Shown here piece by piece: positions 3,519 to 59,323 of a DNA stretch of 64,000 nt (its first letter is position 1; every line of letters begins with the position of its first letter). The stretch is from NCBI GenBank assembly GCA_016182875.1, contig JACPFQ010000004.1, forward strand, positions 183,556 to 247,555. The letters are read 5' to 3'. The position numbers and the translations under genes were made by a program. The notes under the pieces are model-generated. The model had not been told where the DNA came from, did not search any database, and saw nothing but the letters and a program-made list of their open reading frames with translations. The DNA is from Candidatus Doudnabacteria bacterium. Its GTDB lineage: Bacteria; Patescibacteriota; Doudnabacteria; UBA920; O2-02-FULL-48-8.

Positions 3519-3627
3519 ATTTTTCCTTTCTGCCGCGGGTTAAATTCGGTAACTTTTATTTTAATCCCGGAAAATAATCCTGTCAAAAGTTGATAGTTGT
3601 TAGTTAATAGTTTATAATTTTTAAGCT

Positions 3628-3789
3628 ATGCCAGGTACTGAGAATTTGACCCGCGATTATGTTTTTATGAAAAAATCCTCAATCAAAACATATCGCGATA
3701 TAATTTTCGACCAGTCCATCACCGCCGCCGGCATGGGCTGCATGGCGGCCATGGACGCCGAAAAGTATCTGGAAATGGACCACGGCTAG
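3628..3789 (+). pseudogene. thioredoxin reductase C-terminal fragment (53 codons) carried on a repeated sequence
   Basis: Translates to ...YRDIIFDQSITAAGMGCMAAMDAEKYLEMDHG*, matching the conserved TrxB C-terminus (YRQAITAAGxGCxAAxDAEKYL); no upstream TrxB body; first ~87 bp repeated at 32429..32519. Confidence 0.5.
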
Positions 3790-7801: not shown

Positions 7802-7821
7802 AGAATTATTTTTTAATGATT

Positions 7822-7879
7822 AATTTTGAATTTTGATTCAAATTCGAATTTAAGAAATTAGAATATTCATTCGAAATTC
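7822..7879. repeat. 58-bp intergenic repeat, copy 1 (second copy 59266..59323)
   Basis: Identical aattttgaattttgattcaaattcgaatttaagaaattagaatattcattcgaaattc in both rpsF-ssb and der-LCP intergenic regions; contains two short palindromes. Confidence 0.6.
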
Positions 7880-12990: not shown

Positions 12991-13020
12991 GAGAGTATTA
13001 TAGCTTAATTTTATAACCCC

Positions 13021-13099
13021 TCCCAGCCTCCCCTTATATTAAGGGGAGGAGTAATAAATTCCCCCTCTTAAAATAAGAGGGGGCTAGGGGGAGTTATTA
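13021..13099. repeat. C-rich/G-rich twin-hairpin element (cccagccYcccc...ccccctcttaaaataagaggggg...gggggagttat)
   Basis: Related copy 18972..19039 inside uvrC; similar short cccctc/gagggg hairpins at 53798..53822 and 54046..54070. Confidence 0.5.
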
Positions 13100-17254: not shown

Positions 17255-19174
17255 TTAAAGACTGGCCTTTATTTTTTCAGCCGCGGAGTTCCCGACAACG
17301 CGCGCCAGCTCTCCCAATGTCGCTTTGCGAATTTGAGCGACAGACCCAAAGGTTGTCAGCAGCATTTTTTTCTTGGCCGGTCCAATGCCTGCGATTTCAT
17401 CCAAAGTCGAGAGGCGCGAGGCTTTGGATCTGAGCTTTCGGTGATAGGTGATGGCAAAACGATGAGCCTCGTCGCGAATGCGTTGCAGCAAAAAAAGCGC
17501 TATGGAGTTAGGTTGTAAGATTAAGGATTTAGGTTGACCAGGCACAAAGATTTCTTCGAGCTTTTTGGCCAGTCCGATGGTTGCTATATTCAGGTTATAC
17601 ATATGTATAACCTTTTTAGCGACAGAGAGCTGACCCTTACCGCCATCGATGAGGATCAAATCGGGAAGGGGCCAGGTCTTGTCATTGCGAGGAGCCGCAG
17701 GCGACGCGGCAATCTCTTTCTGAGATTGCTTCGCTTCGCTCGCAATGACAGAGCGCATAAATCTACGAGTAAGCATTTCCCTCATCATGGCATAATCATC
17801 CGGCGTGTCTTGGAACTTAATCTTAAACCGCCGATAGTCTTCCTTTTTCGGCCGCCCGAAATCAAACACAATCATTGACCCAACCGCGTTTTTCCCCTGG
17901 ATATTGGAAATATCATACGCTTCGATTCTTCCGGGCAGGGTTTTCAAATTGAGGACGCGCTGAAGTTCTTTGAGCGCGCTCATGAGTCTTGCCTCCTCCA
18001 AAAGCTTCTTGTCTGACTGAGATTCCAGATATTGCTTGGCGTTTTCCTGGCCAAGTTTAATAAGCTTAAGCTTTTGGCCTTTTTTAGGCACTGAGATAAA
18101 GGGCACCTTTTTGGTAGAGAACCCTGACAGTAAAGGTGCCCTTTGTTTTACCGGCGCCAAAATTTCTTTCGGCCAGCTCGAAGCCTCCAAATAATACCTC
18201 GGCAGAAATTCGCTAAGGATTTCGGCAATGCTTGCTCCTTTAGTATTTTCAAGAATAAAATTTTCCTGGCGGATGAGCTTGCCTTCGCGGACTACAAAAA
18301 GGTTCACAGCAGCCGCTGTGGCTTCTATGTAAACGCTGAACACGTCCTGGTCAATTTTTTTTGGATAGACAAGTTTCTGCCTTTCGAGCACGCGGTTAAG
18401 CGCATAAATTTGGTCGCGGACTCTTGCCGCTTTTTCAAACAATTTGGCTCGGGCGTAGCCCTGCATCCGCAATTTTAGGTGTTTAAGAATTTCTGACTGC
18501 CGGCCCTGCAGAAATTCCATGATTTTATTTATGTAGTTTTTTCGGTACTCTTCCAAGGAGATTTTGCCTATACATACTCCCGGGCATTTGCCGATATGGT
18601 AGTAAAAACACGGATGGTTGCTGATTTTTTTGTTGCCGCAGTAAGGGAAAATTTTTCTTAGTAGCCGTAGCGTGTCTTTGATGGAAGCGCTGGAAGTATA
18701 GGGTCCGAAGTAGCGCGCCGATTTATCGGCAGATTTTCTCTCATAGCTAATCGTGGGAATTTCGTCGGCCAAATTGATTTTGACGAATAGGTAATTTTTG
18801 TCATCCCGCAGTAAAATGTTGTACTTGGGTTTGAGCTGTTTGATGAAATTGTTTTCCAGAAGCAGGCTCTCCAGCTCATTGTCGGTAACGGTGTAATCGA
18901 AATCTTTGATCTGCGTGATCATGAGCTGGATTCTCGGCGATAACTCCCCCGCTTTGCCAAGGGCTTTGTCACCCAGCCCCCGGCGGGTAGTGAGGGAGGG
19001 AGTTTCTCTTAATTTAAGAGGGGGTTGGGGGGAGTTATAAAAATGCGAACGCACGCGATTCTTAAGATTAATCGCTTTGCCGACATAAAGAACCAGCCCC
19101 TTGGCGTCTTTGAATGTATAGACACCCGGCTTGCTGGGAAGTTCTTTGATTTTGTCAGCTAGAGCTTTTTGCAT
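17255..19174 (-). CDS. uvrC: excinuclease ABC subunit C
   Basis: GIY-YIG (PGVYxFKD...LYVGKA), UvrC homology, RNase H-like/HhH C-terminus; start set at Met 19174 (the upstream 15 codons lie in a repeat). Confidence 0.9.
   Translation of the reverse strand: MQKALADKIKELPSKPGVYTFKDAKGLVLYVGKAINLKNRVRSHFYNSPQPPLKLRETPSLTTRRGLGDKALGKAGELSPRIQLMITQIKDFDYTVTDNELESLLLENNFIKQLKPKYNILLRDDKNYLFVKINLADEIPTISYERKSADKSARYFGPYTSSASIKDTLRLLRKIFPYCGNKKISNHPCFYYHIGKCPGVCIGKISLEEYRKNYINKIMEFLQGRQSEILKHLKLRMQGYARAKLFEKAARVRDQIYALNRVLERQKLVYPKKIDQDVFSVYIEATAAAVNLFVVREGKLIRQENFILENTKGASIAEILSEFLPRYYLEASSWPKEILAPVKQRAPLLSGFSTKKVPFISVPKKGQKLKLIKLGQENAKQYLESQSDKKLLEEARLMSALKELQRVLNLKTLPGRIEAYDISNIQGKNAVGSMIVFDFGRPKKEDYRRFKIKFQDTPDDYAMMREMLTRRFMRSVIASEAKQSQKEIAASPAAPRNDKTWPLPDLILIDGGKGQLSVAKKVIHMYNLNIATIGLAKKLEEIFVPGQPKSLILQPNSIALFLLQRIRDEAHRFAITYHRKLRSKASRLSTLDEIAGIGPAKKKMLLTTFGSVAQIRKATLGELARVVGNSAAEKIKASL
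17682..17750. repeat. ~69-bp palindromic element (GCGAGCGAAGCGAAGCAATCTC core) lying in frame inside uvrC
   Basis: tcattgcgag...gcaatctctttctgagattgc...ctcgcaatga; encodes ...SVIASEAKQSQKEIAAS...; same core at 30043, 57501, 28989, 32062. Confidence 0.55.
18972..19039. repeat. C-rich hairpin element (family of 13021..13099) lying in frame in the uvrC GIY-YIG region
   Basis: cccagcccccgg...ctcttaatttaagaggggg ttggggggagttat; adds ~25-30 residues (SPQPPLKLRETPSLTTRRGLGDKALGKAGE) between RVRSHF and IQLMITQI. Confidence 0.5.
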
Positions 19175-19179
19175 GGAGA

Positions 19180-19240
19180 TAGATTGCTTCGTCGGCTTCG
19201 CCTCCTCGCAAATGCGCATTCGCGAGCGGACGAAGTCCGC
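19180..19240. repeat. ~60-bp repeat, copy A (inverted copy at 23337..23400)
   Basis: tagattgcttcgtcggcttcgcctcctcgcaaatg(g)cgcat... present in opposite orientation 4.1 kb away. Confidence 0.55.
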
Positions 19241-19359
19241 GTGGCGATCTAATCATTGACGCAACTGATTATATCATAGTAAACTTAGCTGTTCTGCGGA
19301 ATGGTTCCGCGGCACCTTACCAGGGCCTGTATTGGCTCAAAGAACCGGAGGGTTCAGGT

Positions 19360-20096: not shown

Positions 20097-22958
20097 ATGA
20101 CAGAAAAGATCACCGTCCGCGGCGCCCGGGTCCATAATCTCAAGAACATCAACGTCGATATCCCCAGGAACAAACTCGTGGTCATCACGGGTCTTTCGGG
20201 CAGCGGCAAATCCTCGCTGGCATTCGATACTATATATGCCGAAGGCCAGAGACGCTACGTGGAGTCCCTCTCTGCGTATGCCAGGCAGTTTTTGGGCTTG
20301 ATGGATAAGCCGGACGTGGACAAAATCGAAGGTTTGTCGCCAGCCATCTCCATTGACCAAAAATCCGCTTCGCATAACCCCCGCTCCACGGTCGGCACGG
20401 TTACGGAAATTTATGATTATTTAAGATTGCTGTTTGCCCGGGCAGGCACTCCTCACTGCGCTGTTTGCGGCAAGCAGATCATCGGCCAGTCCGTAACGCA
20501 AATGGTCGACCAGATTGTATCCTGGCCGCAATCAACAAAAATCGTCATTTTGGCGCCAATGGTTAAGGATCAGAAAGGCGAGCACAAGCATTTGTTGGAG
20601 GAGCTTAAGAAGACCGGCTACCAGAGGGTCCGAGTGGACAGTACGATTATGGATATTTCCGAGGCTCTGAATTTGAACATCGATAAGAAAAAGAAGCACA
20701 CCATCGATGTCGTCGTGGACAGGCTCGCTTTGGATTCCGAAGACCGCGCCCGCATTGCCGATTCGCTCGAAACCGCGCTTGATTTGGGCAATGATGCGGT
20801 CATCGTGCAGAAAGGGGGTAATGGGGATAATGGGAGTAAAGGGCAAGAAATATTGTTTTCTGCCAACTTCACTTGCCCCGATGGCCACATGAGTTTACCT
20901 GAGCTTAATCCCAGGAATTTTTCGTTTAATTCTCCGCACGGCGCCTGCCCTGACTGTACGGGACTTGGCACTAGGCTGGAAATCGATCCCGAATTGGTCA
21001 TCCCAAATCAGAAGCTGACTCTGGCTGAAGGAGCGGTCCGGCCGTGGAGCAAGACGACTTCGCGTTTGAGCTGGTATTCGGAAATCTTGGAGGAACTGGC
21101 TGAGCGGTTTGGCAGTTCGGTGCATACGCCGGTGAAGGATTTGCCCAAAAAATTCGTGGACGCGGTGCTGTACGGCTCAGGTTCATTCGAAGGCGTGATC
21201 AACAACCTCATGCGCCGGTACAAGGAAACCGACTCCGATTACATGCGGTCGGAAATTGAGCAGTATATGAGAATTAAAACCTGTCCGACCTGCAAAGGCA
21301 AAAGACTCAAACCCGAATTTTTGGCCGTAACCGTGTTTAATCGCTCCATTGTCGATTTGGCGAATTTGCACATCGACGACGCGCTGGAGTTCTTCGAAAC
21401 GCTCCCCAAAAAACTTTCGGAAAAGGAACAAAAAATCGCCCATCAGATTCTCAAGGAGATTTCCCTTCGGCTTAAATTTTTGCAGGACGTCGGCTTAAAT
21501 TACCTGACCCTCGACCGCTCAGCCGACACGCTTTCCGGGGGCGAAGCGCAAAGAATCCGGCTGGCGACCCAGATTGGTTCCGGCCTGACCGGGGTTTTAT
21601 ACATTCTAGACGAGCCGTCAATCGGGCTTCACCAGCGGGACAACGCCCGGCTGCTCAGAACGCTTAAAAGTTTGCGTGATTTGGGCAATACCGTAATCGT
21701 GGTTGAGCACGACGAGGAAACGATTAATGCTTCGGATTGGGTGGTGGATATCGGTCCCGGAGCCGGCAAGCACGGCGGGCATGTGGTGGCCGAAGGAACC
21801 CCGAAAGAGATTAGCCGGAACAAATCCTCCTTGACCGGCAAGTACTTGGCCGGAATAGAATCAATTCCACTGCCAGAAGCAAGGCGGCCGGGCAGCAGCC
21901 GGACCCTGAAAATTGTCGGCGCGTCCGAGTTTAATTTGAAAGATATAGACGTCGAAGTGCCCCTGGGCAAGTTTGTTTGCTTAACCGGAGTTTCCGGCAG
22001 CGGTAAATCAACTCTGCTCAACGAAATTTTGGCCAAAGCCTTGTCAGCTTATTTTTACAACGCCAAAGAGTCGCCCGGGGCGCATAAGAAAATTCTGGGA
22101 ATCGAAAACATTGATAAAATCATAAATATCGACCAGTCTCCGATTGGACGCACGCCGCGCTCCAACCCCGCCACCTATACCGGCGTCTTTACCTATATCC
22201 GGGATTTGTTTGCCGCCACGCCGGAAGCCAGAATGCGCGGGTACAAAGCAGGGAGGTTCAGCTTCAACGTCAAAGGCGGGCGGTGCGAAGTCTGCGGCGG
22301 TGACGGCGTAATCAAGATTGAAATGCATTTTTTGCCGGATGTCTATGTGGCCTGCGAGGAGTGCAAAGGCAAGCGCTACAACAAAGAGGCGCTGGACATC
22401 CACTATAAAGGCAAAAATATCTCCGATGTTTTGGAGATGACCGTGGATGAAGCGCATGTGTTCTTCCGCAACGTGCCGCTGATTGCCCGCAAGCTGGAAA
22501 CCTTGTCTCTGGTGGGGCTGGGTTATATGCACCTCGGTCAGCAGGCGACCACGCTTTCCGGCGGTGAGGCGCAAAGAATCAAGCTCGCTACCGAACTTTC
22601 CCGCGCCTCGACCGGCAAGACTTTGTATATTTTGGATGAGCCGACCACTGGCTTGCATTTTGAGGATGTAAAAAGGCTTTTGGGGGTACTTAATCGTTTA
22701 GTCGAAAAAGGCAATACAGTTCTTGTGATTGAACACAACCTCGACGTAATCAAGAATGCGGACTGGGTAATTGATTTGGGACCTGAAGGCGGCGACAAGG
22801 GCGGGGAAGTGGTGGCTATCGGCACTCCCGAGGATGTGGCCAAGGTCAAGCGGAGCTACACCGGCCAATACTTAGTAAGGGTTTTGTCCGCCAAAGGCGG
22901 ATCCGCCTCCGGCGGAAAAGAAAAAGAGAAGGTAAAGGAAAAAGTGAGAGTGAAATAG
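20097..22958 (+). CDS. uvrA: excinuclease ABC subunit A
   Basis: Two ABC ATPase modules ([20 protein letters not shown]), zinc-finger CxxC pairs. Confidence 0.95.
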
Positions 22959-23333: not shown

Positions 23334-23336
23334 TAG

Positions 23337-23400
23337 ACTGCTTCGCTAATCGCTCGCAGATGCGCCATTTGCGAGGAGGCGAAGCCGACGAAGCAATCTA
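23337..23400. repeat. ~60-bp repeat, inverted copy of 19180..19240
   Basis: Reverse complement of gtgtttagattgcttcgtcggcttcgcctcctcgcaaatggcgcat... Confidence 0.55.
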
Positions 23401-23544
23401 AACACATGCAAAACATTTTTTCTAAACTTAGCCATCATACCAACCCTTTCCCGCTTGGAGAGGTTGGTTAGGTATGCTTTAAGAAAAATTTTTCTTCCCA
23501 ACCCCTGCAAGCCTGCCGGGGTTTTTAATTAAGCTTGATATTTT

Positions 23545-24807
23545 ATGAGAAAAATTCAAATAGGTGTTATGGGATCAATGGCTGATCTAAACTATTCCAA
23601 AGCTACTGAAAAGCTAGCAGAAGAAGTCGGGTTTTGGATTGCTAAAAATGGAGCGGCACTGATTTTTGGGGCGGAAAAAGATGGCGATAGTCTTTCAACA
23701 GCCGCTTGTCGCGGTGCTAAAAAAACTAAAGGCATAACGATCGGTGTAACCTACGCTAAAGGATTGGATGTTTTTGAAAAAAATAATATTGATGTGGTAA
23801 TTGCAACGGGCTTAGAAAGAGGTGGTGGCCGAGAATTGCCACTTGTCTTAAGTTGCGATGCAGTTATTACTTTAAATGGCGGATCAGGAACTCTTACAGA
23901 AGTTGCAATTGCATATCAAGCTAATATTCCCATAGTTGTCCTAAAAGCAACCGGTGGGTGGAGCGGCAGGTTAGCCGGGCAGTATTTAGATGATAGAAAA
24001 CGTATCAAAGCGGAAATTGCTAACAGTCCCAAAGAGGCTGTTCTAAAAGCGTTAGATTTAATTGCACTAAAGCAAGCAAAACAAAAAGATATTTTGGTAC
24101 TGACTGCTGTCCACGGGGACGAATCGATTGGCGTCAGAGCTATGAGAATAATTGATAAGCGAATTCCTGATAACCGTTTTGCTTGGACAATCGCTAACGA
24201 AAAAGCTTTATCTAAAAATCAAAGATTTGTAGATGCCGACCTGAATCGAGCTGCACCAGGCAATAAAAATTCCAAGCAGTATGAAGTTCGCAGAGCATCG
24301 GAACTGTTGAAGTTAGCAAATAATTATCGCTATGTGTTTGATATCCACGGAACAAGTGCCAACTCGGGGATCTTTACGATTGTCACAAATCCGACCCTGG
24401 AAAATTTAGCGTTGGCTTCAATTCTCCCCATAGATAATATTGTTATTTGGATTTCCCAACCCCGAAAAAAATCAGGGCCAATTACCCAGTTTGTTAAGTG
24501 CGGATTGGAAATTGAATGCGGCTTAAAAAATTCACCAAAAACCTTGAAGCAACTAGCTAAAATTTTGGAGGAGATAAACGGTAAGAGTATCGATTATTCG
24601 AATCTTAACCTGAAAGGAAAAAACTTATTCCAAGTTTATGGGAAGCTGATGAAGTCTGAAATTAATAACAAAAATTATAAAAAACTTAAGGACTTCAAAA
24701 AGACTAAAATCAATACAGAGATTTTCTTCCCTCTTTTAGTAGGTCGGTACCTAGGATTAGCCTGTTATAAAATGCGGAAATTGAACCATCGCGACCACCC
24801 TTTATAA
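23545..24807 (+). CDS. fusion protein: N-terminal LOG/SLOG-like Rossmann domain (TIGR00725-like) + C-terminal AstE/AspA (succinylglutamate desuccinylase/aspartoacylase) zinc deacylase domain
   Basis: N-terminus GVMGS...IATGLERGGGRE...NGGSGTLTE; C-terminus HGDESIG, DADLNRAAPG, DIHGT motifs; low GC like backbone. Confidence 0.55.
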   Translation: MRKIQIGVMGSMADLNYSKATEKLAEEVGFWIAKNGAALIFGAEKDGDSLSTAACRGAKKTKGITIGVTYAKGLDVFEKNNIDVVIATGLERGGGRELPLVLSCDAVITLNGGSGTLTEVAIAYQANIPIVVLKATGGWSGRLAGQYLDDRKRIKAEIANSPKEAVLKALDLIALKQAKQKDILVLTAVHGDESIGVRAMRIIDKRIPDNRFAWTIANEKALSKNQRFVDADLNRAAPGNKNSKQYEVRRASELLKLANNYRYVFDIHGTSANSGIFTIVTNPTLENLALASILPIDNIVIWISQPRKKSGPITQFVKCGLEIECGLKNSPKTLKQLAKILEEINGKSIDYSNLNLKGKNLFQVYGKLMKSEINNKNYKKLKDFKKTKINTEIFFPLLVGRYLGLACYKMRKLNHRDHPL

Positions 24808-28943: not shown

Positions 28944-28988
28944 AAATTATGAGCAGACTGCCAATTAATATTGTTGGATTACAGTAAT

Positions 28989-29046
28989 TGTCATCCTGAG
29001 CGAAGCGAAGGATCTCATGAGATTCTTCACTGCGTTCAGAATGACA
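28989..29046. repeat. palindromic element (tgtcatcctgagcgaagcgaaggatctc / gagattc...gcgttcagaatgaca)
   Basis: Variant of the GCGAAGCGAAG palindromic family; supplies the spurious N-terminal codons of the grpE ORF. Confidence 0.55.
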
Positions 29047-29550
29047 AACACGAATATGTCAGACGAGAATAATCAAACCCAGGAAGCTACAGTTGAGGAA
29101 CTGCAGGCTAAGAACGAAGAATTTTTGAATAACTGGAAGCGCGTAGCGGCGGACTTGGAAAACTTCCGCAAACGCCGCGAAGCGGAGAATAAGGAATTGC
29201 TGGAATTCGCCAAGGAAATGGCGGCAATCAAGCTTCTGCCTTCCCTGCAAAGTCTGGAACAGGTCTTGAAGTTCGCGCCGAATGATGAGAAGTACAAAGG
29301 CTGGCTCGACGGCCTCAAAGCTACGATCTTGCAGCTCGAGAAGGCCATGGAAGAGCTGGGCTTGAAAAAAATCAACACGGTCGGCGAGAATTTCGACCAC
29401 GAACTGCACGAAGCCGTGGAAGAAGCGGAAGGAGAAGACGGTAAAGTTTTAAAAGAATTGCAACCGGGTTTTATGCTGCATAACAAAGTAATCATCCCGG
29501 CCAAGGTCGTGGTCGGAAAAAAGTTAAGCGATTCGAATATAGCGAATTGA
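29041..29550 (+). CDS. grpE: nucleotide exchange factor GrpE
   Basis: GrpE coiled-coil plus C-terminal beta domain similarity; start uncertain (29041 or 29056). Confidence 0.85.
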   Translation: MTNTNMSDENNQTQEATVEELQAKNEEFLNNWKRVAADLENFRKRREAENKELLEFAKEMAAIKLLPSLQSLEQVLKFAPNDEKYKGWLDGLKATILQLEKAMEELGLKKINTVGENFDHELHEAVEEAEGEDGKVLKELQPGFMLHNKVIIPAKVVVGKKLSDSNIAN

Positions 29551-30042: not shown

Positions 30043-30131
30043 TGTCTTTGCGAGCGAAGCGAAGCAATCTCATCCCGAGAAAAGAGATTGCTTCGTCGAC
30101 CGGCAATTCGCCGGTCTCCTCGCAAAGACAG
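30043..30131. repeat. 89-bp nested palindromic element in the dnaK 5' region
   Basis: tgtctttgcgag|cgaagcgaagcaatctc...gagattgcttcg|tcgaccggcaattcgccggtc|tcctcgcaaagacag, three nested stems. Confidence 0.6.
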
Positions 30132-32061: not shown

Positions 32062-32119
32062 TGTCATCCTGAACGCAGTGAAGGATCCCATGAGATTCAC
32101 AGCGAAGCTCAGAATGACA
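32062..32119. repeat. palindromic element (tgtcatcctgaacgcagtgaaggatccc / gagattcacagcgaagctcagaatgaca)
   Basis: Same family as 28989..29046; just 3' of dnaK. Confidence 0.55.
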
Positions 32120-32427: not shown

Positions 32428-32579
32428 TATGCCAGGTACTGAAATTTTGACCCGCGATTATGTTTTTCAGGTAAAGAACCCTCAATCAAAAACATATCGC
32501 GATATTAATTTTCGACCAGGCATAAGAACAGGCCTTAAGTGGTCGAATAATTAAGTCAAATTTCTAGTACCTGGTATGC
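32427..32579. mobile_element. MITE-like element with ~25-bp terminal inverted repeats; internal copy of the trxB-3'-like repeat
   Basis: Left arm atatgccaggtactgaaattttgacc (32427..32452), right arm gtcaaatttctagtacctggtatgc (32555..32579); interior 32429..32519 ~90% identical to 3628..3714. Confidence 0.5.
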
Positions 32580-33508: not shown

Positions 33509-34639
33509 ATGGCCAAGGACTATTATTCAACTTTAGGGGTTTCGAAGACCGCGAGTCCGGAAGAAATCAAACGGGCGTATCGCCGTTTGGCGCATGAGCA
33601 TCATCCGGACAAAGGCAACGGCAATGAGGAGAAGTTTAAAGAAATAAATGAGGCGTACCAGGTGCTTTCGAATCCGGAAAAGAGACAGCAGTACGACCAG
33701 TTCGGGACTGCCTTTGACAGCCGGGCTGGGGCGCAGGGATTTAGCGGTTTCGACCCCAATGACTTCATGCGAGGGTTTGGTTTTTCGGGCTCTGCGGATT
33801 TTGAGGACGCATTCGATATTTTTTCGGACATGTTTGGAAGGCCTGCCAGAACCAGGGTCCGGCGCGAACGAGGCGTCGATTTGGAGATGGAAATCAATTT
33901 GTCTTTCGAGGAAGCCGTTTTTGGAACCGAAAAGGATATTTCCCTGGAAAAGCGGGATGTTTGCCAAAGATGCAAAGGAAGCGGGGCCGAAGTTGGAAGC
34001 AAAGTCAGCACCTGCCCCAAGTGCCACGGAACCGGGCAAATCAGGACTTCCCGAAGAACGATTTTTGGGCAGATTGCGCAGGTTGCCGCCTGCGACGAAT
34101 GTGAAGGAAGCGGCAAAGTCGCGGAAATCGTCTGTTCAGAATGTCAGGGCAGCGGGATAGCAAGGCGAACCAAGCGTTTGAAGGTAAAAATTCCAGCCGG
34201 GGTGGATGACGACTCGAGGCTTCGAATTCCTGGTGAGGGCGAAGCTGGGTACAAAGGTTCAAACTTTGGCGACCTTTACCTGCGAATTAATGTCGCGCCC
34301 CATTCTACCCTGCAGAGAGAAGGGTTCAACATTTTATCCGAGCTGCCTTTGAGTTTTTATCAGGCCGCACTCGGGACTCAAGTGGAAGTGGAAACAGTCG
34401 ACGGCAGAGTCAATCTGAAAATCCCAGCAGGCACTCAGTCGGAGAAGACCTTTAGGTTAAAAGGCAAGGGTGTGCCGATCATGGGCCGGTCCGGCCGAGG
34501 CGACCATTTGGTTACAGTGCACGTAATAACGCCCACGAAACTCACGAAAAAAGAAAAAGAATTGTTCAAAAAGCTGGCGGGAGAAAACGGCGAGTCCGTG
34601 GACGTGGACGAAAGCTTTTGGGGTAAGTTTAAGTCTTAA
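33509..34639 (+). CDS. dnaJ: molecular chaperone DnaJ
   Basis: J domain HPD motif, G/F region, four CxxCxGxG zinc-finger repeats. Confidence 0.9.
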   Translation: MAKDYYSTLGVSKTASPEEIKRAYRRLAHEHHPDKGNGNEEKFKEINEAYQVLSNPEKRQQYDQFGTAFDSRAGAQGFSGFDPNDFMRGFGFSGSADFEDAFDIFSDMFGRPARTRVRRERGVDLEMEINLSFEEAVFGTEKDISLEKRDVCQRCKGSGAEVGSKVSTCPKCHGTGQIRTSRRTIFGQIAQVAACDECEGSGKVAEIVCSECQGSGIARRTKRLKVKIPAGVDDDSRLRIPGEGEAGYKGSNFGDLYLRINVAPHSTLQREGFNILSELPLSFYQAALGTQVEVETVDGRVNLKIPAGTQSEKTFRLKGKGVPIMGRSGRGDHLVTVHVITPTKLTKKEKELFKKLAGENGESVDVDESFWGKFKS

Positions 34640-34692
34640 ATCAATTCACTCTAGAAAAAAACCCGCAAAACGCAGGGTCATGCGGGGTAACT

Positions 34693-35355
34693 TTATTGTT
34701 TCAGAACATCGCGCATTGAATACCATCCGGTCTTGCCGGCTACCCAATTTGCTGCCAACAGCGCTCCTTGTGCGAAGGCTTTACGATCCTTGGCGGTGTG
34801 GGTCAGCTCGATGGTGTCCGACGGACTGTCGAACCCCACCGTGTGGATGCCGGAGATTGAGCCAGCTCGCGTGAATGAGACGTCGATGGCGCGATTGAAG
34901 CCAGCCTGTGTCATGGTGTTGCGAAGCATCAAGGCGGTGCCTGAGGGCGCGTCTCGCTTGGCCGCGTGGTGCGCTTCATATATCCATGCGCCGTATTGCG
35001 GCTGAGCCTGGAGCAGCCTCGCGGCCTCTGCCACGACCATCTGAAAGAGGTTGACGCCAATGGAGAAGTTCGGGGCAGCCACTACGCCCAGCCCGGCATG
35101 TTCTGCCTCGGTGCGCAGTCGGCTTTCATGCTCGGACCATCCCGTCGTCCCGATGACGACGTGCAGTTTCCGTTCCGCGTACTGTCCAAAATTGGCAATC
35201 AGCGCTTCAGCAGTGGAGAAGTCGATTGCCACGTCCGCCCGGTTCCACTCATTCCGTTCTCGGTTGACGCGGCCTACTACTTCGAAACCCTGTTCCGTAG
35301 CCAGCTGATCTATTAGCCGGCCCATCTTGCCGTATCCGACAATCAGGATTTTCAT
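34693..35355 (-). CDS. dapB: 4-hydroxy-tetrahydrodipicolinate reductase
   Basis: MKILIVGYGKMG N-terminal Rossmann, DapB C-terminal domain; GC-rich. Confidence 0.85.
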   Translation of the reverse strand: MKILIVGYGKMGRLIDQLATEQGFEVVGRVNRERNEWNRADVAIDFSTAEALIANFGQYAERKLHVVIGTTGWSEHESRLRTEAEHAGLGVVAAPNFSIGVNLFQMVVAEAARLLQAQPQYGAWIYEAHHAAKRDAPSGTALMLRNTMTQAGFNRAIDVSFTRAGSISGIHTVGFDSPSDTIELTHTAKDRKAFAQGALLAANWVAGKTGWYSMRDVLKQ

Positions 35356-36197
35356 CTTTTGCTCCAGAAAAACGGGGCGCACAGAGGCGGCCGATACACG
35401 GGCTCCATCAGACCCCGCATGCTCATTACCACTTTCACCGGGATGGGGTTGGTCTCCACGAACAGCGCCTGAACGAGCGGGAACAGTTGGTAGTTGATTC
35501 GCCGCGCCGTCGCCCAGTTGCCGTCGAGCGCCGCATACACCATGTCCACGGTTTCGCGAGGCATGGGGTTTGAGATCACGGAGATCACCCCGTGTCCGCC
35601 GATGCTGATGAGCGGCAGCGTGAGCGCGTCGTCGCCGGACAGATACGTCAGGCGGTCGCCGCAGAGCTGGATGTCAGTCATCATCTGATCGAGCTTGCCG
35701 GTCGCTTCCTTGACGCCCACGATGTACGGATGTTCCGACAGCTCGGCCAGGGTCGGCGGCAGCAGGTCCACGCCCGTACGCGACGGGATATTGTACACGA
35801 TCACGGGCAGGCCGACATCGGCAATTGCGCGGAAATGGGCCAGGAGGCCAGCCTGGGTAGGCCGATTGTAGTACGGTGTCACCACCAGGCAGCCGTCAGC
35901 ACCCGCCTCCTTCGCGTGCTGGGTCAGGCTGACTGCCTCGGCCGTGGCGTTTGAGCCAGTGCCGGCGATGACCGGCACGCGACCCGCGGCTTCTTCGATT
36001 ACGATTTCGGTAACCCGCCGCTGCTCGTCGTGAGAAAGCGTCGGGCTTTCGCCGGTCGTCCCGCAAGGGACGAGGAAATCGATACCCTGCGCGATCTGCC
36101 AGTTCACCATGCGCCGCAGGACTGTCTCATCCACCGAAAGATCCGGGTCGAACGGCGTGACCATGGCGGTCCCGCAACCCTTAAATGTGCGCTTCAT
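35352..36197 (-). CDS. dapA: 4-hydroxy-tetrahydrodipicolinate synthase
   Basis: DapA family (GTTGES, active-site Lys region); GC-rich; start set at MKRTFKG. Confidence 0.85.
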   Translation of the reverse strand: MKRTFKGCGTAMVTPFDPDLSVDETVLRRMVNWQIAQGIDFLVPCGTTGESPTLSHDEQRRVTEIVIEEAAGRVPVIAGTGSNATAEAVSLTQHAKEAGADGCLVVTPYYNRPTQAGLLAHFRAIADVGLPVIVYNIPSRTGVDLLPPTLAELSEHPYIVGVKEATGKLDQMMTDIQLCGDRLTYLSGDDALTLPLISIGGHGVISVISNPMPRETVDMVYAALDGNWATARRINYQLFPLVQALFVETNPIPVKVVMSMRGLMEPVYRPPLCAPFFWSKR

Positions 36198-53246: not shown

Positions 53247-53615
53247 ATGCTAGGTCGTTCACCAAGCAATTCCACCGCCCTGACCAAAGCCAGCGACCTT
53301 CCCGGGCCGCGATTGGTCAAAAACGGTATTGTGTTGGCCAGCCAACCCAAGCCGTCCTACCTTGCGAGAGTCGTCAATGTTGACCATCCCCCGCCGGGAG
53401 CTGAAGCGGTTCCCATGCTGGCTGGCGACATCGATGACGTCCTCAGGCGTATTTTTGGGAGCGATACCAGGCTCTATCACCGCCTCAGTTGCAATGACGA
53501 GGATGGGTCTGAATGCGACTTTCAAAGCGTACTCGCTGAATCCGGCGTGCACTCGAACGAGCCCTTGGCCGAGCGCTTCAGCGACACGATGCGCCGCGTC
53601 CGCTTCGAAAGCTAG
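53247..53615 (+). CDS. GC-rich orphan hypothetical protein
   Basis: GGAGG RBS; ~60% GC island 52990..53700; a 48-codon TM ORF (53026..53172) with GGAGG RBS lies just upstream. Confidence 0.4.
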   Translation: MLGRSPSNSTALTKASDLPGPRLVKNGIVLASQPKPSYLARVVNVDHPPPGAEAVPMLAGDIDDVLRRIFGSDTRLYHRLSCNDEDGSECDFQSVLAESGVHSNEPLAERFSDTMRRVRFES

Positions 53616-53796
53616 CCCGCAAGTCTCATCCCGCCTCGAAATCGGTCTGTTCCCAGCAGACCAAACCTTGCCCAATCCCGCCTGGGCCAGTGGCTACCAA
53701 GTCCACCGCGGTGAACAGGGAGGCCACAAAATTTCAACACTCGCCGGCGTTGCGCTATGCTCGCCGGCGCATTTTTTTATTTGGTTTATCTACAAA

Positions 53797-54039
53797 TTAA
53801 ATCTCCCCTCTCCTCCCAGGAGAGGGGTCGGGGGAGAGGTGGTTAGAGATTACTTGCAAAACACCTTCCAGGTTTTCGTCTATTTCGCTGTTCCAGAATC
53901 TAAGAATCTTAAAACCAGAGTCAGCTAAATATTTTGATCTTTTATGGTCTTTGATTTTGTTTATTCGTTCATTATGCTGACCGCCATCAATTTCGATGAT
54001 GAGTTTTTTCTCAAAGCAACAAAAATCTACTATTGCCAC
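53797..54039 (-). pseudogene. DUF559 (Vsr-like endonuclease domain) C-terminal fragment
   Basis: ...KKLIIEIDGGQH...GFKILRFWNSEI matches the DUF559 core, but the N-terminal half is missing and replaced by a C-rich hairpin repeat at 54046..54070. Confidence 0.5.
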
Positions 54040-54090
54040 CCCACCCTTAATCCCTCCCCTGAAAGGGGAGGGAAATTCTAAGATGTATAT

Positions 54091-55453: not shown

Positions 55454-56113
55454 ATGCCAAGTCATGGAACCCCCCTCTCCGCAACGCATTTGGCGCCGTT
55501 TGTTAGTACGGCGACCAAAGCCCTGATCCTGGTCGCGAATGATCTGGGACAGGGAGTCCAGGAAAGCTGGGCGAACCGGAGCGAAGAAATGCAGTCGCTC
55601 TTCCGCCAGGCGTTTCTGCCGCCGCAACAGACGGGCCAGCCGCTCATGGCGCGCTATATCGTGCCGATCCCGAACATCGCGGTGAACTACGACCGCAAGT
55701 TCGTGGACGCGGCAATGGCCGGTGGTCCGCAGACCCCGTCCAACTACGATGTCCTCAAAGTCGGCGACCTCTACGTCGCCCGGCACAAGGGCATCGTCCG
55801 GCGCAACATCACGATCGTGAACTTCGGGCTGGACGTCAGCTCGGAACAGGCGCAGGAGTTCGGGCAGGCGCACAAACTCGGTCGCACGCTCGATCCATGG
55901 GAGTGCTTCTCCATCGGCGAGCACCGGCCCATGCTCAATCGCGAGCTCGGCTTCGACTACATGGCCGTTGTCTCGTTGGAGAAGTGCGAGTTCGGCGGTG
56001 AGTCGCGAGTCTGCAGCTGCTGGTGGGACGAGCGGGAGCGCGAGGCCGCTCTCAACTGGTTCACCGACGGCTGGCACGTCCGCTGCTGGTTCGGTTTCGT
56101 CCGCGAGTCCTAG
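55454..56113 (+). CDS. DGR variable (target) protein; C-terminal ~38 residues encoded by VR
   Basis: C-terminus ...CEFGGESRVCSCWWDEREREAALNWFTDGWHVRCWFGFVRES lies in the VR; GC-rich (~60%). Confidence 0.8.
   Translation: MPSHGTPLSATHLAPFVSTATKALILVANDLGQGVQESWANRSEEMQSLFRQAFLPPQQTGQPLMARYIVPIPNIAVNYDRKFVDAAMAGGPQTPSNYDVLKVGDLYVARHKGIVRRNITIVNFGLDVSSEQAQEFGQAHKLGRTLDPWECFSIGEHRPMLNRELGFDYMAVVSLEKCEFGGESRVCSCWWDEREREAALNWFTDGWHVRCWFGFVRES
55989..56104 (+). repeat. DGR variable repeat (VR), 116 bp
   Basis: Gap-free alignment to TR 56439..56554 with 17 mismatches, every one at a TR adenine. Confidence 0.85.
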
Positions 56114-56438: not shown

Positions 56439-56554
56439 AATTCGGCGGTAAGTCGCAAGTCTGCAACTGCTGGTGGAACGAGCAGAAGCGCAAGGCCAAT
56501 CTCAACTGGTTCACCAACGACTGGAACGACAACTACTGGTTCGGTTTCGTCCGC
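56439..56554 (+). repeat. DGR template repeat (TR), 116 bp
   Basis: See VR; contains 30 A of which 17 differ in VR (13 A>G, 3 A>C, 1 A>T). Confidence 0.85.
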
Positions 56555-56966: not shown

Positions 56967-58043
56967 TTGGCTCATGGTTTTGACGAGATTATTTCTGTTG
57001 AGAATCTGCTCTTGGCTTGGCAAGAGTTTATCCGCGGCAAGAGGAATAAGCCGGATGTCCAACTCTTTGCTCACGCTTTGATTGATAATATTTTACAGCT
57101 TCACAATGATTTAGCCAACAAGACTTATCGGCACGGCGGATATTACCAGTTTAAGATTTCCGATCCCAAGCCGCGGGATATCAGCAAAGCCTCGGTTCGC
57201 GATAGGCTTTTGCATCATGCGATATATCGAATCCTGTATCCATTCTTTGACCGGACATTTATCGCTGATTCTTTTTCCTGCCGGGTTGATAAAGGCACGC
57301 ACAAGGCGGTCAACCGATTGCTGGCAATGTTCAGAAAAGCAAGCAAGAACAATACCCGCACATGCTGGGTTCTCAAATGCGACATCAGGAAGTTCTTTGC
57401 CAGCATAGATCATGATGTTTTGAAAAATATTTTAGCTAGACATGTTCCTGACATAGATATGCTTTGGCTTCTAGGGAATATTATTGATAGCTTTGGGTCA
57501 GATTGCTTCGTCGGCCGCCAGACTAAACCCCGGCCAGAAAACCGGCCTCCTCGCAATGACATTAAATCTGTCTTTGCGAGCGAAGCGAAGCAATCTCATA
57601 ACCAGGGTCTTCCCTTAGGCAACCTAACCTCCCAGCTCTTCGTCAACATATATATGAACGAGTTTGACCAGTTTGTGAAGCATAAACTCAAGGTTAAGCA
57701 TTATATACGCTATGCCGATGATTTTATAATTCTATCTCCAAGCGAAGAGGAACTCACTGCAATACTGTCACGTATTGCAGTACTCCTCAAGCAAGAGCTT
57801 AAACTGCGGCTTCATCCACATAAAGTCACTCTTAAAACCTTTGCTTCAGGCATTGATTTTTTAGGGTGGGTTAATTTTCCCCATCATAGAGTGCTACGCA
57901 CAGCCACGAAAAAACGGATGCTTAAGCGTATCCGTGTAAATTCAACCAATGAAACCTTGCAATCTTATTTAGGACTTTTAAAGCACGGGAATACTTTTCA
58001 AAAAATTTTCGCCAGCCCGCAGCAATGGCCGCGGGGAAGTTGA
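56967..58043 (+). CDS. DGR-type reverse transcriptase
   Basis: RT motifs: KCDIRKFFASIDH (2), GLPLGNLTSQLFVNIYMNEFD (4, DGR-specific LGNLTSQ), YIRYADDFIIL (5, YADD), GIDFLGW (7); TTG start after AGAGG RBS. Confidence 0.85.
   Translation: MAHGFDEIISVENLLLAWQEFIRGKRNKPDVQLFAHALIDNILQLHNDLANKTYRHGGYYQFKISDPKPRDISKASVRDRLLHHAIYRILYPFFDRTFIADSFSCRVDKGTHKAVNRLLAMFRKASKNNTRTCWVLKCDIRKFFASIDHDVLKNILARHVPDIDMLWLLGNIIDSFGSDCFVGRQTKPRPENRPPRNDIKSVFASEAKQSHNQGLPLGNLTSQLFVNIYMNEFDQFVKHKLKVKHYIRYADDFIILSPSEEELTAILSRIAVLLKQELKLRLHPHKVTLKTFASGIDFLGWVNFPHHRVLRTATKKRMLKRIRVNSTNETLQSYLGLLKHGNTFQKIFASPQQWPRGS
57501..57597. repeat. ~97-bp palindromic element (GCGAAGCGAAG family) lying in frame within the RT gene between motifs 3 and 4
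   Basis: gattgcttcgtcggccgcc...ccggcctcctcgcaatgaca...tgtctttgcgagcgaagcgaagcaatctc; encodes ...GSDCFVGRQTKPRPENRPPRNDIKSVFASEAKQSH... Confidence 0.5.
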
Positions 58044-59247: not shown

Positions 59248-59265
59248 TAGAAATTTAGAATTAAG

Positions 59266-59323
59266 AATTTTGAATTTTGATTCAAATTCGAATTTAAGAA
59301 ATTAGAATATTCATTCGAAATTC
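59266..59323. repeat. 58-bp intergenic repeat, copy 2 (copy 1 at 7822..7879)
   Basis: Identical sequence. Confidence 0.6.

Follow-up and report, generated by a model that had tools for sequence, protein, structure and literature searches.

Two palindromic repeats carried in frame inside uvrC of a Candidatus Doudnabacteria bacterium

In-frame growth of proteins by palindromic repeats is a textbook oddity of Rickettsia, whose palindromic elements (RPE) were reportedly described by Ogata et al. in 2000. The uvrC gene of a Candidatus Doudnabacteria genome, a metagenome assembly from the candidate phyla radiation, raises the question of how two different palindromes came to lie within one reading frame so far from that genus. 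The gene (17255..19174, minus strand) encodes 639 aa and hosts both insertions, which we call element a and element b; all positions are those of the window, i.e. the whole stretch of 64,000 nucleotides that was analysed. Apart from the inserts the enzyme is intact. Its sequence is 100% identical to a database protein of Candidatus Doudnabacteria, "excinuclease ABC subunit UvrC", that starts at 19174, and it matches the Pfam entries GIY-YIG, UvrC_RNaseH, UvrC_RNaseH_dom and HHH_5. An alignment of 112 UvrC sequences was used (the window protein and 111 relatives). All family-wide invariant columns are kept, catalytic residues included. The two flanks of each element carry on the same UvrC alignment, and a chimeric join is therefore not present.

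Element a (17681..17749, minus strand; 69 bp, 23 codons) consists of two inverted, TGTC-tagged units that together form a palindrome. Its sequence is TGTCATTGCGAGCGAAGCGAAGCAATCTC-AGAAA-GAGATTGCC...CTCGCAATGACA at 17680..17750, and the 69-nt core within these limits lies in codon phase 0 and translates to VIASEAKQSQKEIAASPAAPRND (residues 476-498), in the loop that links the RRF helix to the WPLPDLILIDGG strand in the RNase H-like endonuclease domain. The predicted fold is strong, both as RNA (-36.4 kcal/mol, z = -5.1) and as DNA (z of about -6 for each strand), and this is a property of the pair: a single 29-nt unit forms a stem of only 5 bp, at -2.7 kcal/mol (z = 0.28 relative to shuffled sequence), and the 3' unit alone has a z of -1.05. 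A 24-nt core of the element is repeated exactly at 30048 and 57574 (chance expectation 0), and the arm start GTCWTYSYGARSR occurs 9 times in the window against 0.31 expected.

Element b is a degenerate copy of a C-rich twin-hairpin family. The initial annotation had given it too short a range (18972..19039, about 68 bp); bounded by the inverted ends ATAACTCCCCC and GGGGGAGTTAT it occupies 18940..19038 (minus strand; 99 bp, 33 codons), and its translation, (Y)NSPQPPLKLRETPSLTTRRGLGDKALGKAGEL, falls in a loop of the GIY-YIG domain after RVRSHF. The left 23 nt equal the family signature TAACYCCYCCCARCCYCCYCTTA exactly (chance expectation 0), the second hairpin is lost, and the folding is modestly above that of shuffled sequence (RNA z = -3.4; DNA z = -1.3 and -0.6 for the two strands). 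About seven native codons are missing at the site, so that element b is not a clean insertion; it replaces them with a net gain of 26 codons. An intact copy lies in intergenic DNA at 13014..13098 (plus strand), with the ends TAACCCCTCCCAGCC and GGCTAGGGGGAGTTA and the hairpins CCTCCCCTTATATTAAGGGGAGG and CCCCCTCTTAAAATAAGAGGGGG; it matches the signature exactly (0 expected), folds well as RNA (z = -4.75) and has a stop codon in six of six frames. In uvrC, the frame that is used is the only open frame of element b. The earlier claims of two palindromes that keep the reading frame open and of a further intergenic copy of family b were borne out, and both lengths are multiples of three (69 bp in phase 0, and 99 bp). 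Translational bypass or removal of the segments was considered and rejected, since each insert is divisible by three and has no open frame other than the one used.

Both repeats lie in loops. In the solved UvrC structures that were mapped the loops at the two sites are short: chain residues 81 and 82 of 2nrt are adjacent where the window protein has residues 475-500, and query residues 50-80 have no match in 1ycz and 1yd6. In the AlphaFold model of the window protein (mean pLDDT 88.5) the confidence drops only in the inserts and in a small number of linkers. At site a it has coil for residues 489-505 (pLDDT < 50 for 492-495), and the preceding helix runs on, at low confidence, into the first part of the element; at site b residues 47-79 are coil with a pLDDT of 44-58.

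Family a recurs in several places within the window. An intergenic element of 88 bp separates an hsp20-like ORF from dnaK (30043..30130, plus strand; -52.4 kcal/mol, z = -8.7), and two elements of a subfamily, a2 (TGTCATCCTGAGCGAAGCGAAGGATCTC...), were found between hrcA and grpE (28987..29048, plus strand; z = -7.35) and downstream of dnaK (32062..32119, plus strand). A pair in the opposite arrangement (19181..19250, minus strand) lies upstream of uvrC and stops 6 nt short of its start codon; the outward arm ends of this pair are GCGATCT and AGCAATCT and the centre is CTCGCGAATG-CG-CATTTGCGAG. A second pair of that arrangement (23335..23399, plus strand), intergenic and located before the gene at 23545, is 92% complementary to it. 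The pair at 57500..57596 (plus strand, outward arrangement) is in frame in a reverse-transcriptase ORF, where it reads ...DCFVGRQTKPRPENRPPRNDIKSVFASEAKQS...; the RVT_1 match of this ORF covers residues 68-301 and so spans the pair (residues 178-210), in agreement with the reported hit in the reverse transcriptase. It was also correctly noted that family-a elements contain the starts of two long ORFs, those of grpE (start 29017) and uvrC (start 19219); the ATG at 19219 falls within the pair 19181..19250 and is a spurious start.

Both families extend far beyond this genome. The exact 22-nt core of family a was recovered from at least 120 stretches of species-representative genomes of many phyla and from 118 viral-contig stretches, and the signature of family b turned up in at least 120 stretches from metagenomes and in 15 from viral contigs. 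The tag of family a is TGTC in all window copies and mostly CGTC or TGTC in other phyla, where the unit ends in ...GCAATCCAG, the end being ...GCAATCTC in the window. Among the matches listed, about 10% of the family-b copies are spanned by long open frames. The eight that were checked against Pfam are all in frame inside housekeeping genes (UvrC, DnaG, EPSP synthase, two Mur ligases, a class I aminoacyl-tRNA synthetase, PheRS alpha and a GT2 glycosyltransferase), and the coding copies elsewhere always read PPLxLRGG, or SPYDKGRLGGV from the other strand. Single half-units of family b are as frequent as pairs. Outside the candidate phyla radiation family a is mostly extragenic: in other phyla 24 of 117 copies among the matches listed are spanned by long open frames, and a coding status for these was rejected, since six of the seven longest frames have no Pfam match and the only one with a match has the element upstream of its RNase PH domain, which points to artefacts of high GC content for most of them. 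Unrelated phyla and viral contigs share identical arms of family a. An Rfam scan of the whole window returned three tRNAs only, and neither element matches a curated RNA family.

The comparison of orthologues separates the two sites. The initial annotation had named same-length segments with conserved protein sequence in UvrC orthologues of related genomes as the observation that would refute insertion; the comparison did not refute it. At site b the segment is absent from all 111 aligned relatives, whose loop has 9-10 residues (9 in the nearest relatives) versus 35 in the window protein. At site a the closest relatives (68% and 64% identical) are without element a and have only decayed remnants, but in distant orthologues (45-50% identical) there are segments comparable in length that have the same VI..../...ND ends. 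At the DNA level these are independent palindromes, of the same superfamily but of different subfamilies, with different centres and offset by a few codons. Of the two closest relatives, P0002 has SMIRDND, encoded by ...ATGATCCGTGACAATGAT..., and P0003 has repeated AATGACA motifs that form a palindrome of their own; both resemble remnants. The loop at site a ranges from 3 to 43 residues among the orthologues and from 6 to more than 100 in an exhaustive search of UvrC representatives. In nine orthologues with available DNA, 11 of 16 lineage-specific UvrC segments rank 0-2 in hairpin stability among more than 100 windows of their own gene. Other lineages have received similar hits, some of them in the same UvrC loop. 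Element a has identical arms in UvrC genes whose proteins share only about 50% identity. Neutral passengers are expected to decay, as they did in the two closest relatives, and the arms are identical instead; some force would therefore renew or constrain them, be it re-insertion, gene conversion or selection.

We compared both families with known systems. Family b shares with MITEs its small size, terminal inverted repeats of about 15 nt (TAACYCCYCCCARCC and, at the opposite end, GGYTRGGGRGGRGTTA), a large number of dispersed copies and the lack of an encoded protein. Unlike MITEs, it has no target-site duplication at the three junction pairs inspected (those of the two copies of the window and of the one in L122, where the two sides share no direct repeat), an insertion sequence with the same ends that could be its parent was not seen, and with half-units as common as pairs it is closer to REPs. 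A target-site duplication was not found at the family-a copies either. Neither a common target motif nor a candidate for the mobilising enzyme came to light, and the GTAG tag of the system of GTAG REPs and RAYTs (REP-associated tyrosine transposases) is absent from both families. With RPE the elements share the position of a palindrome in frame within a housekeeping gene, where the ORF is kept open and a surface segment is added. They belong to other sequence families, RPE-1 has a greater length (roughly 100-150 bp), and the host here belongs to a free-living or episymbiotic groundwater lineage, whereas Rickettsia is an obligate intracellular alphaproteobacterium. The peptides of RPE-6, which is family CGTC-1 (VIPAKAGI and DSRFRGND; PMC3733652), share with VIASEAKQS...PRND only the VI.. 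and ..ND ends.

The closest likeness of element a is to the CGTC-tagged REPs of Di Nocera, De Gregorio and Rocco (2013, BMC Genomics 14:522, PMC3733652), whose units come mainly in head-to-head pairs. Each unit is defined as a hairpin (stem 8-9 bp, loop 4-5 nt) whose stem opens with complementary A-T residues, with a short unpaired tail, mostly CCA, and an unpaired CGTC tag at one end that is often TGTC or CCTC; RPE-4 is their family CGTC-4, and no transposase is known for them (PMC3733652). Element a has the TGTC variant of the tag followed by AT, a stem that opens with complementary A-T at positions 1 and 2 (TGTC|ATTGC...GCAAT|) and an inverted pair of units around a variable centre. The tags are outermost at 17680..17750, at 30043..30130 and in most matches in other genomes, the opposite arrangement being present at 19181..19250 and 57500..57596, and a minority of the copies is in frame in genes, reading VI... 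and ...ND at the ends. Unlike CGTC REPs, a single unit of element a has no hairpin with an 8-9-bp stem and a 4-5-nt loop, and as it folds no better than shuffled sequence it falls outside the strict REP definition. The stem (ATTGCGAG...) differs from the peptides and sequences listed in PMC3733652, the 22-nt core is identical across many phyla, and the host belongs to the candidate phyla radiation, which lies outside the coverage of that study. Of the designation as RPE-like, the in-frame palindrome stands; for element a, a TGTC/CGTC-tagged, REP-like inverted pair is a more fitting description than a strict RPE.

In-frame palindromic repeats are also less rare than the initial annotation supposed. 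Many are listed in PMC3733652, where intragenic REPs are concentrated in replication and repair genes and include in-frame REPs in the excinuclease A, B and C subunits (uvrA, uvrB, uvrC). The UvrC proteins of R. conorii and X. autotrophicus are on that list, the former (RC0864, 639 aa) with an insert at residues 438-446 (PMC3733652). The inserts of these two appear to occupy a different loop than element a, because they lie about 193 residues from the C-terminus compared with 139 here. In-frame repeats are therefore already described for Rickettsia and other bacteria. In the literature searched we found no match to the core sequence of family a and no paper on palindromic elements, REPs or MITEs, in frame or otherwise, in the candidate phyla radiation (Patescibacteria).

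Taken together, the two segments are most probably non-autonomous palindromic repeats, tolerated as passenger insertions in surface loops of UvrC. Two pairs of inverted units, REP- or MITE-style, would have landed in these loops and would be transcribed and translated with uvrC as extra, largely unstructured loops, kept by survivorship and not for a function. They would persist because each adds a net length divisible by three, the used frame is free of stops and the sites are tolerant of extra sequence. The open frame and the intact gene together suggest that the segments are translated; selectively they are probably near-neutral, and they may have been spread, in the form of hairpin DNA, by a factor whose gene lies elsewhere.

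It is possible, though rather unlikely, that the copy at site a descends from an old, ancestral insertion, with arms that were kept, or restored from time to time, by gene conversion from other copies or by re-insertion into a remnant, and that the lineages without element a lost it by hairpin deletion. The same loop is occupied by palindromes of the element-a type in the same VI.../...ND frame in the window and in L121, L123 and L124, the closest relatives P0002 and P0003 have apparent remnants, and L121 and L123 have no family-a arm in about 20 kb other than the uvrC copy. However, the flanking codons vary by lineage (3-5 residues before the element and 1-4 after it), the carrier P0098 reads the 5' arm in another frame, and the site is occupied by different subfamilies, a and a2. 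The carriers are moreover scattered over the tree among many lineages with a short loop, and this loop is hypervariable in all bacteria, so that tolerance alone predicts repeated hits.

That the inserts are functional we consider improbable. In that case hairpins in the mRNA or DNA would tune uvrC expression (for instance as an RNase processing site, by ribosome pausing or by protein binding), or the loops would offer UvrC a new interaction surface, and one may point to arms that are conserved to the nucleotide across very distant genomes, to the recurrence of REP-like inserts in uvr genes of several phyla, to the third family-a hairpin just upstream of the uvrC start codon and to the modelled extension of the helix into element a, which is of low confidence. 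Against this, most orthologues have no insert at either site, element b is decayed and restricted to the genome of the window, and the insert peptides are whatever the open frame of the repeat encodes; the same families also occur in unrelated genes and in intergenic DNA, and both inserts are predicted to be disordered. It is hardly credible that the segments are absent from the mature protein through skipping or removal at the level of RNA or translation, that uvrC is dead or that the metagenome assembly is at fault, for although strong hairpin repeats can confuse assemblers, removal of the segments would make the exact multiples of three and stop-free frames needless, and a dead gene would be unlikely to have them; no catalytic or invariant residue is lost, the flanks join without a chimera, and inserts of the same kind are found in assemblies made independently from other samples.

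With these elements, growth of proteins by palindromic repeats would extend from Rickettsia to the candidate phyla radiation. The genomes of this radiation are small and have unusually many lineage-specific insertions in conserved genes, and palindromic repeats would be a concrete source for some of these. A wider reading can be put forward only tentatively, and as a whole it is somewhat doubtful: the candidate phyla radiation would join Rickettsia as a second large lineage whose essential proteins routinely incorporate REP-like palindromes, family b would be an undescribed repeat family of this radiation, the UvrC loop before the LIDGG strand would be a landing pad that was hit repeatedly and independently, and the arms of element a would be identical by way of a shared trans factor or phage-borne spread and not by descent. 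For annotation it follows that VIASEAKQS..RND, PPLxLRGG and GGSASGG in such proteins are to be read as repeat-encoded and that ORF starts within such hairpins are spurious. A genome with few copies and a recurrent target in the UvrC loop would also be tractable for studying the movement and the uniformity of the repeats.

Two minor observations concern the insertion sites and the surroundings of the repeats. The short ancestral loop RND is encoded by CGC AAC GAT and CGA AAT GAT in two orthologues, only a partial match to CGCAATGAC, the form in which the RND codons might attract element a by microhomology. An IS1595-type gene was observed in L247.

The uvrC open reading frame (17255..19174, minus strand) encodes a product 100% identical to a database protein from a 327-kb contig that is annotated as excinuclease ABC subunit UvrC of Candidatus Doudnabacteria, and all the usual UvrC domains were recovered in it with Pfam. 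In an alignment of 112 full-length UvrC sequences (the window protein and 111 relatives) every family-wide invariant column is intact in the window protein, including the GIY-YIG Tyr, Arg, Glu and Asn and the endonuclease-domain Asp and His; judged by these columns, the gene does not look inactivated. The two palindromic elements that the initial annotation had placed in frame within uvrC are real: element a, a TGTC-tagged palindrome, lies in codon phase 0, and of the three sense frames of element b, a member of a C-rich twin-hairpin family, only the one used is open. A longer uvrC frame starting at 19219 was rejected as spurious; its start falls inside a family-a unit, and the proposed N-terminal extension of the frame from a repeat was thereby borne out.

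On the coding strand element a (17750..17680) reads TGTCATTGCGAGCGAAGCGAAGCAATCTC AGAAA GAGATTGCCGCGTCGCCTGCGGCTCCTCGCAATGACA, with a core of 69 nt (17749..17681) that codes for VIASEAKQSQKEIAASPAAPRND (UvrC residues 476-498). Its hairpin is strong (-36.4 kcal/mol, z = -5.1 as RNA; z of about -6 for either strand as DNA). Exact repeats of its 24-nt core lie at 30048 and 57574 (none expected by chance), and the arm start GTCWTYSYGARSR occurs 9 times in the window against 0.31 expected. The further family-a copies in the window are: an intergenic one (30043..30130), two of a variant, subfamily a2, that flank the grpE-dnaK region (28987..29048 and 32062..32119), two units of opposite arrangement (19181..19250 and 23335..23399) and a pair (57500..57596) in the reverse transcriptase (RT) frame 56967-58043. 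The latter pair, which had also been anticipated, is in frame within the RVT_1 domain (residues 178-210), directly ahead of the GLPLGNLTSQ motif. The hairpin at 19181-19250 ends 6 nt upstream of the uvrC start codon, and this unit with the subsequent ATGCAAAA is found a second time at 23366-23413, before another gene (92% complementary over 48 nt); the unit (19181-19250, 23335-23413) may influence translation initiation, or it may be the mark of a common 5' region.

Element b was correctly located in the GIY-YIG loop by the initial annotation, but the interval assigned to it was too short: it spans 99 bp, from 19038 to 18940, with the ends ATAACTCCCCC and GGGGGAGTTAT. The signature TAACYCCYCCCARCCYCCYCTTA is matched exactly by the first 23 nt of this element and by an intact intergenic copy (13014..13098); it has 3 matches in the window, against none expected. 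The intergenic copy forms two perfect hairpins (RNA z = -4.75) and has stops in all six frames. In the uvrC copy the second hairpin is lost, the ends and one half of the first remain, and the folding exceeds that of shuffled sequence only modestly (RNA z = -3.4, DNA z = -1.3). The uvrC of another Doudnabacteria-like genome (L122) carries a clearly related element, in frame but at a different position, that shares with element b both ends and the extra module ahead of the right end.

The alignment argues that both elements are insertions and not ancestral sequence. The element-b segment is absent from all 111 relatives, in which the loop between RV.SYF and RIQ has 9-10 residues, against 35 in the window protein. 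In the two nearest relatives (68% and 64% identical) the DNA at this site (site b) is a short, non-palindromic stretch; the net gain is therefore 26 codons, with about 7 native codons lost on insertion. Among orthologues the loop that holds element a (site a) can be as short as 3 residues (KND or RND) and as long as 43. The window protein was also compared with solved UvrC fragments: in the Thermotoga chain 2nrt, residues 81 and 82 are adjacent where the window protein has 475-500, and its residues 50-80 find no match in the GIY-YIG structures 1ycz and 1yd6. In an AlphaFold model built from the orthologue alignment, confident overall (mean pLDDT 88.5), residues 47-79 are coil (pLDDT 44-58), and element a begins as a low-confidence helix extension and continues as coil (pLDDT below 50 at 492-495). 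The original interpretation was essentially right.

Palindromes of the element-a type were also found in the site-a loop of other orthologues for which DNA was fetched. In L121 (protein P0101, 50% identical) the 5' arm is identical over 30 nt, with a different centre and 3' hairpin; L123 (P0008) carries subfamily a2, L124 (P0107) a third variant, and in P0098 the 5' arm is read in another frame. The flanking codons vary among the carriers (3-5 ahead of the element, 1-4 behind), which are scattered among many short-loop lineages in a neighbour-joining tree, and neither L121 nor L123 has a family-a arm within about 20 kb other than that in uvrC. The closest relatives have what resemble decayed remnants, namely SMIRDND in P0002 and, in P0003, repeats of an AATGACA motif that form a new palindrome. 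The occupants of site a reflect either repeated insertion or an old insertion with renewal of its arms, and an old remnant may attract such renewal. An exhaustive search of the 66-residue region against 1.84 billion representative proteins found the loop to be hypervariable across UvrC generally (6 to more than 100 residues), with VI...ND-type inserts in a handful more representatives (P0162, P0131, P0127, P0183). We read this loop as tolerating almost anything, so that hits accumulate there.

When lineage-specific UvrC segments of nine orthologues with DNA were ranked for hairpin stability among the windows of their own gene (more than 100), 11 of 16 came out at rank 0-2. These include a different palindrome, in another UvrC loop of the published Doudnabacteria genome RIFCSPLOWO2_02_FULL_42_9 (L247, 10766-10837; -39 kcal/mol), translated as LPAMPRVKQSDKAWQA. 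Family b is abundant in metagenomes (at least 120 stretches, many with single half-units alongside pairs). Among the matches listed, 104 copies lie clear of contig ends, and long open frames run across 13 of them; of 10 such frames checked, 8 fall within domains or proteins that Pfam confirmed: another UvrC, DnaG primase, EPSP synthase, two Mur ligases, a class I aminoacyl-tRNA synthetase, PheRS alpha and a GT2 glycosyltransferase. The coding copies all read PPLxLRGG or, from the opposite strand, SPYDKGRLGGV. A short double palindrome in the C-terminal tail of uvrA (22884-22919, TTGTCCGCCAAAGGCGGATCCGCCTCCGGCGGAAAA), read as 11 residues, probably represents one more family of small hairpins, the third, that enters coding sequence; its GGSASGG is also an insert in the UvrC orthologues P0011, P0083 and P0028.

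The exact family-a 22-mer TTGCGAGCGAAGCGAAGCAATC occurs in at least 120 stretches (L001-L120) of species-representative genomes, including Bradyrhizobium and other Alphaproteobacteria, Deltaproteobacteria, Legionellales, Coxiellaceae, Bacteroidota, Cyanobacteria, Chloroflexota, Planctomycetota, Zixibacteria, Omnitrophota and Ignavibacteria. Viral contigs supply another 118 stretches (L249 onward). Among the matches listed the arms are always constant and the centre between them, 10-40 nt long, is variable. The frames that span family a in these other phyla are mostly spurious, and there the family is therefore essentially extragenic. In one stretch (L092, 1826-2030) at least six 5' half-units follow one another in tandem, one every 34-37 nt, unlike the usual inverted pairs. 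In L005 and L071 (Xanthobacteraceae, Hyphomicrobiales) C-rich and G-rich hairpins resembling family-b modules sit within the variable centre of family-a elements, and in several metagenome contigs (L129, L165, L197, L228, L243) family-b units adjoin repeats of the classic type TGTCATTCCCG...CGGGAATCC. The families may thus use one another as targets or have sites in common.

In-frame insertion of palindromes in genes is already known. Di Nocera et al. (2013; PMC3733652) defined the GTAG- and CGTC-tagged superfamilies of repetitive extragenic palindromes (REPs), the latter often with the tag TGTC, with stems starting AT, mostly in head-to-head pairs and without a dedicated transposase, and listed UvrC inserts in R. 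conorii (residues 438-446) and X. autotrophicus (residues 550-585, VMPGLEPGIH...GHD). Peptide ends VI... and ...ND, from GTCAT... and ...ATGAC, are common to that list and element a, which resembles the CGTC REPs in tag, AT start and pair organisation. Its single units, however, lack the REP hairpin fold, and we therefore label it CGTC-REP-like, not a proven member. Family b behaves as a hybrid of REP and miniature inverted-repeat element (MITE), without target-site duplications. In the literature searched, no paper describes palindromes of this kind from the candidate phyla radiation. Three details appear to be new: the host lineage, family b and the UvrC loop that is hit recurrently. We infer that the inserts are translated and neutral.

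Several other repeats were seen in the window. Short C-rich hairpins lie at 53805-53827 (CCCCTCTCCTCCCAGGAGAGGGG), inside a frame without a Pfam match (53329-53928), and at 54051-54073 (TCCCTCCCCTGAAAGGGGAGGGA). Three pairs of direct repeats, dispersed or local and unrelated to families a and b, were found at 3627-3707 and 32428-32511 (40 nt at 95% and 23 nt at 91%), at 7810-7879 and 59254-59323 (70 nt at 93%, AT-rich) and, just upstream of the RT, at 55991-56104 and 56441-56554 (114 nt at 86%). The G+C content of 1-2000 and 34001-36000 (0.61 and 0.58) is clearly above the window average of about 0.48, and 1-2000 contains several very stable long inverted repeats, such as 1063-1157 (-55 kcal/mol).
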